A DNA stretch of 64,000 nucleotides, taken from assembly GCF_054482525.1 (NCBI RefSeq), contig NZ_CM137006.1; one strand, 5' to 3'. The translations under genes and the position numbers were made by a program. The stretch's first letter is position 1; the number at the start of each line of letters is the position of its first letter. Shown here piece after piece: positions 18,186 to 34,054 of this stretch. The notes under the pieces were generated by a model. That model had not been told where the DNA came from. It saw only the letters and a program-made list of their open reading frames with translations, and ran no database searches.

Positions 18186-18189
18186 TGAT

Positions 18190-18223
18190 AAAAAAGCCGA
18201 TGTCTGCCATGACATCGGCTTTT
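18190..18223. terminator. bidirectional rho-independent terminator between convergent flhE and argS
   Basis: stem GCCGATGTC/GACATCGGC flanked by an A-run on one side and a T-run on the other. Confidence 0.6.
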
Positions 18224-18237
18224 GCCGTATAACGCGA

Positions 18238-19971: not shown

Positions 19972-20186
19972 CGGAATACCTTACATTGATGAAGCGAGCA
20001 AAAATTGCCCGCACCAGTTAAAGAAATTAGGGCGGGAGTATACTGCAAATGGCTGTTTTCGTCAGCAACGTGCGCGTGGCGTATTGCCGTTTTCACTATT
20101 GCATCAGAAGCGGCGTGAAATCAGCGGTTGGTTGGCGCAGGGCAACAGGGTAAATTAACGCTTTTACTGAAAGACGAAGAGTGATT

Positions 20187-20753
20187 ATGGCGAACTGGCA
20201 ATCTATCGACGAGCTGCAGGATATTGCATCGGATTTACCGCGATTTACCCACGCATTAGATGAACTTTCCCGCCGTCTGGGGTTGGATATCACTCCGCTG
20301 ACTGCCGATCACATTTCTTTGCGTTGCCATCAAAACGCCACTGCTGAGCGCTGGCGTCGCGGGTTTGAACAGTGCGGCGAGCTTTTGTCAGAAAATATGA
20401 TCAATGGCAGGCCGATTTGTCTGTTTAAATTGCATGAACCGGTACAGGTTGCGCACTGGCAGTTTTCCATTGTGGAGCTACCGTGGCCCGGGGAAAAACG
20501 TTACCCGCACGAAGGTTGGGAACATATTGAAATCGTTCTGCCGGGTGATCCAGAAACGCTGAATGCCCGTGCGCTGGCATTGCTTTCTGATGAAGGACTC
20601 AGCCTGCCGGGGATCTCAGTTAAAACCAGTTCGCCAAAAGGTGAGCATGAGCGATTACCGAATCCGACGCTGGCGGTCACCGATGGCAAAACGACCATTA
20701 AATTTCATCCGTGGTCCATTGAAGAGATCGTTGCCAGCGAGCAGTCGGCGTAA
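20187..20753 (+). CDS. yecM: YecM, conserved metal-binding protein of unknown function
   Basis: ORF 20181..20753; ATG at 20187 gives the 188-aa MANWQSIDELQD form. Confidence 0.85.
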   Translation: MANWQSIDELQDIASDLPRFTHALDELSRRLGLDITPLTADHISLRCHQNATAERWRRGFEQCGELLSENMINGRPICLFKLHEPVQVAHWQFSIVELPWPGEKRYPHEGWEHIEIVLPGDPETLNARALALLSDEGLSLPGISVKTSSPKGEHERLPNPTLAVTDGKTTIKFHPWSIEEIVASEQSA

Positions 20754-20757
20754 TTGA

Positions 20758-21513
<756 letters not shown>

Positions 21514-21559
21514 TTTTTACCGTTGCATCATGTCGCCCAATATGATGCTTGCTCGTACC

Positions 21560-21592
21560 AGGCCCCTGCAATTTCAACAGGGGCCTTTTTTT
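21560..21592 (+). terminator. rho-independent terminator after cutC
   Basis: stem AGGCCCCTG/CAGGGGCCT followed by T7. Confidence 0.65.
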
Positions 21593-21898
21593 ATCCCTGA
21601 ATAGTATAAAAAATGAACGATTATCGCGATCTGTTGAGCGGGTGACAGTGCACATAGCGTTGTGCTAAAAATTTTTATATATTCATATTAATTATGTAAT
21701 TTAAATTACTAAAACTGACAAATATGTATTCTAAATAACAACTGGGTTATTCCTTAGCAATTAATGATTACATTGTAATAAATCATATTCTTTATCGATT
21801 ATTTCAGGCAGTGTTGTGCCGAATTATGCAAGCGGTCAATTCGTTGTGTATTTAATTATACAATGATTTCGGTGTTCTGGAATTAATTAGAGGAATCT

Positions 21899-22999
21899 AT
21901 GCGAGGGAAAAAACGCATTGGGTTAATGTTTTTGCTGATAGCGGTTGTGGTTGGTGGCGGCGGGTTATTGCTGGCGCAAAAAGCCTTACATAAAACGTCG
22001 GATACCGCATTTTGCCTTTCCTGCCACTCGATGAGTAAACCTTTTGAGGAATATCAGGGAACTGTCCACTTTTCGAACCAGAAAGGGATACGTGCGGAAT
22101 GTGCCGATTGCCATATTCCAAAGTCAGGGATGGATTATTTATTTGCTAAATTAAAAGCATCTAAAGATATTTATCATGAATTTGTTAGCGGCAAAATAGA
22201 CAGTGACGATAAGTTCGAAGCGCATCGCCAGGAAATGGCCGAAACAGTATGGAAAGAATTAAAAGCCACTGACTCTGCAACGTGCCGTAGTTGCCATTCT
22301 TTTGATGCCATGGATATTGCCTCGCAAAGTGAATCTGCGCAGAAAATGCATAACAAAGCGCAAAAGGACGGCGAAACCTGCATCGATTGTCATAAAGGCA
22401 TTGCCCATTTTCCACCAGAAATAAAAATGGATGACAACGCGGCGCATGAGCTGGAAAGTCAGGCCGCTACTTCAGTTACCAATGGCGCACATATTTATCC
22501 TTTCAAACCTTCTCGTATAGGCGAACTGGCTACCGTGAATCCTGGTACCGATCTCATCGTCGTTGATGCCAGTGGCAAACAGCCGATCGTTCTGTTGCAG
22601 GGGTATCAAATGCAGGGCAGTGAAAACACGCTCTACCTGGCGGCAGGTCAACGGCTGGCGCTAGCCACATTAAGTGATGAAGGTATCAAGGCGCTGACGG
22701 TAAACGGGGAATGGCAGGCTGACGAATACGGCAATCAATGGCGTCAGGCGTCTTTACAGGGTGTGCTTACCGATCCCGCATTAGCGGACCGTAAACCGCT
22801 ATGGCAATACGCTGAAAAACTTGACGATACCTATTGCGCTGGTTGCCATGCCCCTATTGCCTCCGACCATTACACCGTCAATGCATGGCCGTCCATTGCC
22901 AAAGGAATGGGTGCGCGAACCAGCATGAGCGAAAACGAACTGGACATTTTGACGCGGTACTTCCAGTACAACGCCAAAGATATTACCGAGAAACAGTGA
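21899..22999 (+). CDS. torY: membrane-anchored pentahaem c-type cytochrome TorY (NapC/NirT family)
   Basis: 366-aa ORF with multiple CxxCH haem-binding motifs. Confidence 0.92.
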
Positions 23000-23023
23000 T
23001 CCTCGTTGATCAGGGAGGAAGTT

Positions 23024-25453
23024 ATGACATTAACAAGACGTGAATTTATTAAACACAGCGGTATTGCCGCTGGGGCGCTGGTGGTGACATCGGCTGCACC
23101 GCTACCCGCATGGGCAGAAGAGAAGGGTGGCAAAATCCTCACCGCGGGCCGTTGGGGAGCGATGAACGTAGAAGTGAAGGATGGCAAGATTGTTTCTTCG
23201 ACAGGCGCGTTGGCGAAAACCATACCGAACTCCTTACAGTCTACGGCGGCGGATCAGGTACACACCACGGCGCGTATTCAGCATCCGATGGTGAGAAAAA
23301 GCTATCTCGATAATCCACTGCAACCGGCGAAAGGTCGTGGCGAAGATACCTATGTACAGGTGAGCTGGGAACAAGCATTAAAACTGATTCATGAGCAACA
23401 CGATCGTATTCGTAAAGCTAACGGACCATCGGCCATTTTTGCCGGATCTTACGGCTGGCGCTCTTCTGGCGTGTTGCATAAAGCGCAAACCTTACTGCAA
23501 CGTTATATGAACCTTGCGGGCGGTTATTCCGGGCATAGCGGCGATTATTCAACCGGGGCGGCACAGGTGATCATGCCGCATGTGGTGGGTTCCGTGGAGG
23601 TGTATGAACAGCAGACCTCCTGGCCGCTGATTCTGGAAAACAGCCAGGTGGTGGTGCTGTGGGGGATGAACCCGCTGAATACCTTAAAAATTGCCTGGAG
23701 CAGTACCGATGAGCAAGGGCTGGAATACTTCCATCAGCTGAAAAAATCTGGCAAACCAGTGATTGCCATTGATCCTATCCGCTCCGAAACTATCGAATTC
23801 TTTGGCGATAATGCCACCTGGATCGCGCCGAATATGGGCACCGACGTGGCACTGATGTTAGGGATCGCGCATACCCTGATGACACAAGGCAAACACGATA
23901 AAGTGTTCCTTGAAAAATACACTACCGGATATCCGCAGTTTGAAGAGTATCTGACAGGTAAGAGCGATAATACCCCGAAGAGCGCGGCCTGGGCGGCGGA
24001 AATTACTGGCGTACCGGAAGCGCAGATAATCAAACTCGCTGAACTGATGGCGGCGAATCGCACAATGCTGATGGCTGGCTGGGGAATTCAGCGCCAGCAA
24101 TATGGTGAACAGAAACACTGGATGCTGGTGACGCTGGCGGCGATGTTAGGGCAGATTGGTACACCGGGCGGCGGTTTTGGTTTCTCTTATCATTACTCCA
24201 ATGGTGGCAACCCGACGCGTGTTGGCGGCGTGCTGCCGGAAATGTCTGCGGCGATTGCCGGACAGGCCAGCGAGGCCGCTGATGATGGCGGAATGACGGC
24301 GATTCCTGTTGCCCGTATCGTCGATGCGCTGGAAAATCCTGGCGGAAAATATCAGCATAACGGTAAAGAACAAACGTATCCGAATATCAAAATGATCTGG
24401 TGGGCGGGTGGCGGTAACTTTACCCATCACCAGGATACTAATCGTCTGATCAAAGCCTGGCAGAAACCGGAGATGATCGTCGTTTCTGAATGCTACTGGA
24501 CCGCAGCTGCTAAACATGCAGATATCGTATTACCGATCACCACATCGTTTGAGCGCAATGACTTAACGATGACCGGTGATTACAGCAACCAGCATATTGT
24601 GCCGATGAAGCAGGCTGTCGCTCCGCAATTTGAAGCGCGTAACGATTTTGACGTGTTTGCCGATCTTGCTGAATTACTGAAACCTGGCGGAAAAGAGATC
24701 TATACCGAAGGTAAAGATGAGATGGCGTGGCTGAAATTTTTCTATGATGCCGCTCAGAAAGGTGCCCGTGCGCAACGCGTGACTATGCCGATGTTTAATG
24801 CCTTCTGGCAGCAAAATAAACTGATCGAAATGCGCCGCAGCGAGAAGAACGAACAGTACGTTCGTTATGGTGATTTCCGCGCCGATCCGGTGAAAAATGC
24901 GCTGGGTACGCCAAGCGGCAAAATTGAGATTTACTCCAAAACGCTGGAAAAATTTGGCTATAAGGATTGCCCGGCACACCCAACCTGGCTTGCGCCTGAT
25001 GAGTGGAAGGGTACCGCCGACGAGAAGCAGTTGCAGCTTCTGACCGCACATCCGGCACATCGTTTACACAGTCAGCTTAACTATGCGGAACTGCGTAAAA
25101 AATATGCGGTTGCCGATCGTGAACCGATCACTATTCACACCGAAGATGCTGCTCGCTTTGGTATTGCGAATGGCGATCTGGTGCGTGTCTGGAACAAACG
25201 TGGTCAGATTCTGACAGGCGCGGTGGTGACTGACGGGATCAAAAAAGGCGTGGTATGCGTGCATGAAGGTGCATGGCCAGATCTGGAAAATGGCTTGTGT
25301 AAAAACGGCAGTGCGAACGTGTTAACGGCGGATATCCCCAGCTCTCAGCTGGCAAATGCCTGTGCCGGTAACTCTGCGCTGGTGTATATCGAAAAATATA
25401 CGGGCAATGCACCGAAGTTAACGGCGTTTGATCAGCCAGCTGTTCAGGCATAA
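23024..25453 (+). CDS. torZ: trimethylamine-N-oxide / biotin sulfoxide reductase TorZ (molybdoenzyme)
   Basis: ORF 23006..25453; ATG at 23024 gives 809 aa starting [10 protein letters not shown], a twin-arginine (Tat) signal. Confidence 0.93.
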
Positions 25454-25499
25454 GACGTGAAAAGCGCCCGGAAACAGGCGCTGAGGTTATGCAAACGTA

Positions 25500-25610
25500 A
25501 AACTGCCTGATGCGCTATGCTTATCAGACCTACATAGTCCCTGCAACATATTGAATTAAAAAGGCTTTGCAGGCCGGATAAGGCGTTCACGCCGCATCCG
25601 GCAGTAATAC
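25500..25610. repeat. REP/BIME palindromic elements between torZ and cmoB
   Basis: GCCTGATGCGCTATGCTTATCAGACCTAC and GGCCGGATAAGGCGTTCACGCCGCATCCGGCAG match the REP consensus. Confidence 0.65.
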
Positions 25611-25617
25611 CAGACCT

Positions 25618-27765
<2,148 letters not shown>

Positions 27766-33177: not shown

Positions 33178-33780
33178 TTATACCGCCTCGGTCAGTTCCG
33201 GCTGAGGCGTTTCCACTCCCTCCGCATGAATCAACACCAAACCCGGATGATGCCACAAACTGGCTGGCGTGACGGTTTTACGCTCCCACGGAATAGAACC
33301 TAAGAACCAGAATTTCCAGAAAGTGAGTTTTGCATTCGGATTGCTATTTAACAATTCTCCAAACGTCTCTATTTCACCCACCGGAATACATAGCGCCTTT
33401 TTATAAATATCAAAAACAAATTTTGAACAGAACTGGCGCGAAGATTCGTATTTAAAACCGGTGTGGTAAAGTTTGCGTAGCCGGGAGGGAACCTGTTCAA
33501 CAATTCGTTGTTTTTGTTGTTCTGTAAGCCCGGCGTCTAATCGCTTTATAGCATAGCGTTGATTAGAAGAACGTTTAATAAAACGAGATAGCGTGGTGAT
33601 GGTTGAAAGGGGAACCCGGCTTTCTGCAACCATGAAGTCTTCACCGTTATGACCGATAATGATCCCGACGTGATTACTCCAGCAATTTGATGCAGCTGAT
33701 ATTTGACCAAATAAGGCAGCACCTATACATGTAAAGACGATATCACCAATTTCATATTCAGCAGGATAATTAATATTCAC
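33178..33780 (-). CDS. yebB: YebB, conserved protein of unknown function
   Basis: 200-aa ORF between ruvC and ruvA on the opposite strand, as in K-12. Confidence 0.8.
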
Positions 33781-33987
33781 ATTGTCATTCCATTGAAATA
33801 GATACGAATATACGTAATAGCATAAAAAATTTATTTTTTCAGGAGGCGCAATATGTATTTTTATTACGCATTTCTTCGCTGAATATGTAATATTTAAATA
33901 TTTGCTTCCAATATAACCTGTAGAATAAATTATACTGCGCCATTTTTCAGATCATCGGGACGCCTCGCAAGTTTTCTTCATCCTTCG

Positions 33988-34003
33988 CTGGATATCTATC
34001 CAG
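33988..34003. promoter_or_regulatory. LexA (SOS) box of the ruvAB operon
   Basis: CTGGATATCTATCCAG fits CTG-N10-CAG, about 50 bp upstream of the ruvA start. Confidence 0.8.
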
Positions 34004-34054
34004 CATTTTTTTATCATACAGCATTATCTTTGATTCATTACGCAGGAGCGTCAT

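Follow-up and report, generated by a model that had tools for sequence, protein, structure and literature searches.

The question raised by this locus is what keeps the torYZ operon of E. coli poorly expressed, and whether the AT-rich DNA directly in front of torY has a part in it. An earlier interpretation made from the letters only (the sequence-only reading) had taken about 300 bp before torY for a typical H-NS-silenced promoter region and had called torYZ poorly expressed. The latter statement agrees with the published description of torYZ expression as low and constant and not induced by substrate, given in the passage of Ravcheev 2007 that quotes Gon 2000. According to our analysis, positions 21596-21898 very probably constitute a non-coding regulatory leader of torYZ, which forms the left edge of an inserted block, is bound by H-NS and carries a ModE-type operator.

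The DNA analysed is a window of 64,000 nucleotides (64 kb), and the part of it around the leader is E. coli chromosome, positions 21400-22100 being 100 % identical to strain PCN033. In the RefSeq annotation of that strain cutC occupies 20767-21513, torY 21899-22999 and torZ 23024-25453, the last two on the plus strand; torY encodes a pentahaem cytochrome c of the NapC/NirT type and torZ a molybdenum (bis-MGD) S-/N-oxide reductase. The RefSeq annotations of PCN033 and K-12 share the gene order argS, yecM, cutC, torY, torZ, followed by the convergent cmoB-cmoA. Further upstream, the gap between flhE and argS (approximately 18186-18237) is about 52 bp long in the annotation of this strain and is followed by argS; in K-12 yecT and the tiny yecV sit between the two genes (L001, 55-838), and this segment of approximately 790 bp is missing here.

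The gene for the MicL sRNA was localized on the plus strand at 21285-21592, within and past cutC (Rfam RF02654, 368 bits, full length). An intrinsic terminator common to cutC and MicL (stem 21560-21586, T-run 21586-21592) forms the upstream boundary of the leader, and the AT-rich region starts 4 bp after the end of this terminator. The AT-rich non-coding leader (21597-21898, 29.5 % G+C) extends from there to the start codon of torY and ends with a conserved, directly readable Shine-Dalgarno sequence, AGAGGAA, at 21889-21895 on the plus strand. The first 500 bp of torY itself have a G+C content of just 44 %. MicL is a sigma-E-dependent sRNA that represses lpp, and during envelope or copper stress transcription from its promoter could conceivably read through into torYZ.

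The strong AT-richness ascribed to approximately 300 bp before torY was borne out by the base composition. Segment 21600-21898 has a G+C content of 29.1 % in comparison to 50.9 % for the whole window and is the second-lowest 299-bp segment in the 64 kb (0.2th percentile; z about -7.5 versus uniform composition). Two G+C-richer islands, 21625-21665 (58.5 %) and 21802-21840 (46 %), flank an extreme AT core of 136 bp at 21666-21801, whose G+C content of 17.6 % is the minimum for this length in the 64 kb. TpA steps occur in the leader at 12 per 100 bp versus 4.2 in the window, a 2.9-fold enrichment. The supposed abundance of A/T tracts held for mixed runs, as there are 12 A/T-only runs of at least 6 bp and 5 of the window's 60 runs of at least 10 bp lie in the leader, but not for homopolymers, only four of which (A6, A5, T5 and A4) reach at least 4 nucleotides. 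Curvature, which the same reading had proposed to compute, was estimated by an approximate wedge model, which places the region at the 91st percentile; the highest value, 13 degrees per turn, falls on the A5T5 tract near 21667. By this estimate curvature is above average but not exceptional. Since H-NS prefers AT-rich, TpA-rich DNA, the core at 21666-21801 is most likely the stretch where H-NS would nucleate.

Two other 299-bp segments of the window belong to the lowest in G+C, 1853-2151 in the uspC-flhDC spacer (26 %) and 33741-34039 in the yebB-yobI-ruvA spacer (30 %), so that all three extreme AT segments of the 64 kb are regulatory spacers. The ruvA-yobI spacer is likewise marked as an H-NS site (Shimada 2014, PMC3946193).

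Comparison with related genomes indicated where the leader comes from. The torYZ block is absent from E. fergusonii, Salmonella enterica and Citrobacter koseri, where the convergent cmoB comes directly after cutC. The homology with E. fergusonii ends at 21595 (…TTTTTTTATC, just beyond the terminator) and resumes at approximately 25618-25622, from the stop codon of cmoB. Since the block is missing from these outgroups and the homology breaks at 21595 and about 25618, the stretch of approximately 4.0 kb at about 21596-25617, on the plus strand and flanked by the cutC/MicL terminator and the stop codon of cmoB, is an inserted block, composed of the AT-rich leader, torY, torZ and a terminator/REP spacer; the leader begins at its first base. 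In a TorY scan with one genome per species, the order cutC-torYZ-cmoB was found in Escherichia only (E. coli, a divergent lineage labelled E. coli, E. whittamii, Escherichia sp. E1V33 and E. albertii). The best homologues outside Escherichia, from Citrobacter, Trabulsiella, Yersinia, Budvicia and others, lie in other contexts and show about 60 % (TorY) and 78 % (TorZ) amino-acid identity. Judged from these comparisons, the block was acquired horizontally, and it probably entered the cutC-cmoB gap in an ancestor that E. coli shares with E. albertii and E. whittamii. The insertion is old, because torY and torZ show about the same divergence as cutC and argS from their counterparts in K-12 and in other Escherichia species.

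No mobile-element signature was found at the torYZ block, the short direct and inverted repeats present there not being terminal repeats. A plasmid search for a mobile donor of torYZ returned E. coli records labelled as plasmids that contain the complete torYZ block (H56-H62), which were rejected as 0.39-4.9-Mb entries with chromosomal DNA; they are evidently mislabelled or chimeric and give no evidence for mobile torYZ. The best foreign plasmid match, from Aeromonas media, is just approximately 70 % identical. REP-type sequences occur in the spacer between torZ and cmoB (25454-25617), which closes the block on the right, and sub-threshold Rfam matches to naRNA4 (25572-25616) and ES036/CssrF (25526-25568) were noted in this spacer.

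The AT-richness is not restricted to the Escherichia insertion. For about 20 of the 31 torY loci, the 300 bp poorest in G+C of the approximately 9-kb locus are found no further than about 525 bp upstream of torY, whatever the neighbourhood, and the AT-rich leader is therefore a property of the cassette rather than of the insertion site in Escherichia. The torY leader of Citrobacter (L033, 3383-4000, with equivalents in L007-L018 and L025) is an AT-rich stretch of about 620 bp that follows a co-directional gene with its own terminator. Three of the loci (L011, L017 and L018) have a second gene for a TorZ-like reductase upstream (46 % identity).

The leader evolves faster than its surroundings. 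Its identity to K-12 is 92.7 %, versus 97.4-97.9 % for the flanking genes and 100 % for the adjoining MicL 3' end (21514-21599), which corresponds to an approximately three times faster divergence. This matches the trend reported for H-NS-bound regulatory spacers (Higashi 2016, PMC4720273). The leader is present in 5419 of 5426 complete E. coli genomes, in 4484 of them with only 90-95 % identity to the allele studied here. In 55 genomes (about 1 %) no single match covers at least 80 % of the leader, which is interrupted there, and in both such genomes examined, DS26-1 and FDAARGOS_1295, an IS1A element resides in the AT-rich leader. In FDAARGOS_1295 (IS1A at L042, 2288-2985) the insertion is located at about 21736 and leaves torY and 162 bp of the leader intact; in DS26-1 (IS1A at L002, 4276-4973) there is also a deletion, which begins at about 21660 in the leader and takes away torY up to codon 109. 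IS-mediated activation is known for H-NS-silenced loci such as bgl, and by analogy the IS1A insertions in the leader recall such events.

The rapid divergence, the IS1 insertions in some strains and the position of the leader exactly at the insertion junction could also be accommodated if its AT-richness were a neutral by-product of relaxed selection and AT-biased mutation in a long spacer, or an insertion scar, and had no regulatory role. This seems very improbable to us: conserved islands persist in the leader in six Escherichia lineages including E. albertii, the arrangement of AT-rich DNA and a ModE box before torY recurs in unrelated contexts in other genera, and a scar left by a mobile element would be at odds with the lack of a mobile-element signature.

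The reading of the leader as an H-NS-bound promoter region is upheld by published binding data, which come from other E. coli strains (K-12, SE11 and SE15) and are tabulated at the level of genes or spacers. The cutC-torY spacer was listed as a site bound in genomic SELEX by the RpoD holoenzyme alone, and it carries an H-NS genomic-SELEX site (Shimada 2014, PMC3946193, Table 2); an RpoS-holoenzyme SELEX peak was placed at K-12 position 1956162, adjoining the torY start (Shimada 2017). In ChAP-seq of K-12, SE11 and SE15 with His-tagged H-NS, torY and the transcription unit torYZ were scored as H-NS-bound (Higashi 2016, PMC4720273, S2 Table), and in cutC the binding was confined to a 3'-terminal part that makes up less than 10 % of the gene. 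Binding of the tip of cutC together with torY is the footprint expected if the bound region is centred on the spacer. Occupancy of the cutC-torY spacer and torY by H-NS is thus documented both by SELEX and by ChAP-seq.

The evidence for an effect of H-NS on expression is of a different kind. Only in an hns/stpA double mutant did an FNR peak appear 'within torZ' and did torZ become two-fold induced under anaerobic conditions (Myers 2013, PMC3688515); the effect is small and the peak lies within torZ, outside the AT-rich leader. No direct measurement of torYZ mRNA, TorZ activity or derepression in an hns mutant was found in the literature. It is reasonable to regard H-NS as a cause of the low expression of torYZ. 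In the same study an oxygen-dependent ChIP-seq peak of sigma-70, with the label 'torZ', is given at 1.95511 Mb of K-12 (Myers 2013, Table S2, PMC3688515), which on coordinate conversion falls at about 22945, in the 3' end of torY and approximately 80 bp before the start of torZ. This peak could mark an internal promoter for torZ; no consensus promoter was found in 22700-23100.

The leader contains a ModE-type operator, TTCGTTGTGTA-TTTAAT-TATACAATGAT, recognized at 21840-21867 by its consensus match and its conservation. It spans 32-59 bp before the start codon of torY, with the centre approximately 45 bp before the ATG. When the leader was compared with other genera by sensitive blastn, a single short segment aligned, in both orientations, and nothing else did; it is a palindrome upstream of torY, CGTTGTGTATTTAATTATACAATGA in E. 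coli and TCATTGTATATTTAATTATATAACGA in Citrobacter. Sites were scored as matches over the 20 specified positions of ATCGNTATATA-N6-TATATANCGAT, the ModE consensus quoted for E. coli in Rodionov 2004 (PMC545781). The site scores 15/20 in this strain, owing to an A-to-G change at 21848, 16/20 in K-12 and 15-17 in the other Escherichia lineages. For calibration, 50 kb of K-12 across mod and moa were scanned: the modA and moaA operators score 16/20 each and nothing else exceeds 13. Only two positions in the 64-kb window score at least 14; they reach 15 each and are situated in the AT-rich leader. The second one, at 21772-21799, is a weaker candidate which lacks the TATAT cores and reaches at least 15 just in this strain and K-12.

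The ModE-type site is kept in all 6 Escherichia lineages and in most torY loci of Enterobacterales. In 264 kb of torY loci every match scoring at least 15 was situated upstream of torY. Relative to the torY start, Escherichia has it at about -60, while the positions are -280 to -320 for Citrobacter, Trabulsiella and Entomohabitans, about -190 to -210 for Yersinia, Budvicia and Limnobaculum, and -83/-131 for Leminorella; a few extra matches lie further upstream of torY. No match of at least 15 was found at the torY loci of Vibrionaceae. Dinucleotide-preserving shuffles of the 400-bp upstream regions gave P of at most 0.003 in 10 of 11 Enterobacterales loci and 0.012 in E. albertii. Given that the distance from the operator to the start codon is about 45 bp in Escherichia versus about 300 bp in Citrobacter, its regulatory logic may differ between genera.

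Control by ModE would be biologically sensible because TorZ is a molybdoenzyme. Binding of ModE in vivo is predicted here from the site itself, and its effect may go in either direction. The site is not presented as new, because Kurata et al. in 2013 reportedly found a ModE genomic-SELEX target at torY; the K-12 site is said to have been assigned to an antisense promoter, 'morB', rather than to torYZ. The ModE-type site was therefore probably reported already in that year.

Apart from the ModE-type site, one of the few conserved islands, the spacer has diverged by 7 % (versus K-12) to 21 %. Alignment of six Escherichia lineages delimited a genus-conserved block at 21665-21718, CTAAAAAT..TATATATTCATATTAATTATGTAATTTAAATTACTAAAACTG, which includes the palindrome GTAATTTAAATTAC, and another one at about 21763-21818, which contains the second ModE match, an ATCGAT palindrome and an inverted repeat (21760-21786). 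Segment 21600-21660 is poorly conserved, with indels. Consensus scans of the leader revealed no FNR, CRP, ArcA or IHF sites and one match to a Fis-like pattern; matches to Fur (13/19), TorR (8/10) and NarL-like sites were dismissed as being at chance level. The best match to the 10-bp high-affinity motif of H-NS, 8/10 at the ATCGAT palindrome, was uninformative.

A promoter for torYZ is less easily recognized. The one proposed on the plus strand, GTGACA-18-TAAAAA at 21643-21672 (Shimada 2014, PMC3946193; hexamers read directly), is a weak candidate, and its -35 hexamer GTGACA is not conserved across Escherichia. No site in the leader reaches 9/12 matches to a plus-strand sigma-70 promoter for torY. 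With no convincing plus-strand sigma-70 promoter, a weak promoter alone could explain the low expression. In its full form this main rival explanation sees the chief reason for the low expression in the promoter itself, which would be intrinsically weak or activator-dependent and controlled by ModE and possibly further regulators, H-NS binding being a passive result of AT-richness with little regulatory effect. It would fit the presence of a strong, conserved ModE-type operator, the modest effect of the hns/stpA mutations and the 3- to 6-fold inducibility of torZ by HOCl, copper and paraquat in the wild type. Nevertheless we find it rather doubtful: in vitro the spacer is bound by the RpoD and the RpoS holoenzyme with no further factor, which argues that a promoter exists without activators, the spacer and the 5' end of torY are occupied by H-NS in vivo, and the access of FNR near the operon shifts once H-NS and StpA are removed.

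Promoter-like sites are also present on the minus strand. Our own scan identified ATTCCA-17-TATAAT at 21855-21883, whose perfect -10 hexamer (21860-21855) is located inside the ModE-type site and has 5 of its 6 positions kept across the genus; we take it to be a candidate for the antisense 'morB' promoter. A second site, CTGCCT-18-TATGAT at 21782-21811, has 8/12 consensus matches and both its hexamers are invariant in six Escherichia lineages. These two sites, together with the conserved blocks that have no assigned function, would be compatible with an unannotated transcript encoded in the leader, either an antisense or divergent RNA (such as 'morB', reportedly described in Kurata 2013) or the mRNA of a small protein, in which case the conserved islands would reflect that gene and not the control of torYZ.

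We consider such a gene unlikely. No open reading frame of at least 20 codons is present in 21669-21896 on either strand, and a 55-codon minus-strand frame at 21488-21655 was rejected as it crosses the terminator and the poorly conserved, indel-bearing stretch. A transcript from the minus-strand sites would have to cross the same stretch, 21600-21660. In an Rfam search of 20000-23500 with E up to 1, MicL, upstream of the leader, was the sole family and no match fell in the leader; neither a Moco riboswitch nor another leader RNA was found by Rfam in 15 related loci, and RNA folding of the leader gave z of about 0 and no structure signal on either strand. Since 21669-21896 hold no reading frame of that length and the leader shows neither an Rfam match nor excess RNA structure, it is non-coding DNA.

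If the leader is the H-NS-bound control region of torYZ, as we prefer, its action may be pictured as follows. The extreme AT- and TpA-rich core would nucleate H-NS, together with StpA, and the filament would extend from the tip of cutC over the spacer into the 44 %-G+C start of torY. While naked, the DNA of the leader can be bound by the sigma-70 and sigma-S forms of RNA polymerase; inside cells the filament would restrict the access of polymerase and activators, which would leave torYZ expressed at a low level and poorly inducible. The ModE-type operator accompanies torYZ in other Enterobacterales, and ModE-molybdate bound to it probably couples local transcription, of torYZ or from a putative antisense promoter, to the molybdate supply.

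A more elaborate model, in which we place little confidence, treats torYZ as an ancestral member of the ModE regulon that moves with its AT-rich leader and ModE box. In Escherichia the box, approximately 45 bp before the start, would overlap divergent promoter-like elements inside the H-NS filament, and ModE-molybdate could be a switch, or counter-silencer, that opposes H-NS; insertion of IS1 or read-through from the sigma-E-driven MicL promoter might have the same effect. If this were true, counter-silencing by ModE, IS1 or MicL could explain the induction of torZ by copper, HOCl and paraquat.

The arrangement resembles H-NS-silenced acquired or cryptic operons such as bgl, proU, hlyE and the flhDC region, the last of which lies in the window. 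As in those cases the leader is extreme in AT and TpA content against a 51 % G+C background, it is located at the 5' end of an acquired block, H-NS occupancy reaches the first gene, basal expression is low, the leader diverges faster than its surroundings and IS1 insertions occur in natural isolates. Unlike in typical xenogeneic silencing, the acquisition is old and the G+C content of the coding DNA is nearly native, and no pair of upstream and downstream silencers, loop or dedicated counter-silencer is known for torYZ.

Similarly, the torY site shares with the ModE operators of modABC, moaABCDE and dmsABC an inverted repeat whose TATAT-type half-sites are flanked by CG and separated by 6 bp. 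Its score, known here from sequence, about equals those of the modA and moaA operators, it precedes molybdoenzyme genes and, like the modA operator (-45 from the ATG), it is near the start codon. It differs from the known operators in the degenerate half-site cores of E. coli torY (TGTGTA/TATACA instead of TATATA) and in a position that varies by genus (-45 versus -300). The torCAD promoter, with TorR boxes and inducible by TMAO, controls the paralogous pair of a cytochrome and a TMAO reductase; unlike it, the torYZ leader has no TorR boxes apart from the one chance-level match, and torYZ is not induced by substrate.

The AT-rich, H-NS-bound leader is real and ordinary, and it is largely present already in the literature and databases. 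The exact boundary of the insertion, the conservation of the ModE-type box across genera with its calibration, and the divergence pattern are incremental additions. For E. coli the leader would account for the near silence of its third TMAO/S-oxide reductase in the laboratory, which would be encoded by a cassette acquired long ago and covered by H-NS in its control region. Although with little reach beyond torYZ, the finding points to the inputs on which expression of this operon may depend, namely molybdate acting via ModE, the removal of H-NS and the insertion of IS1.
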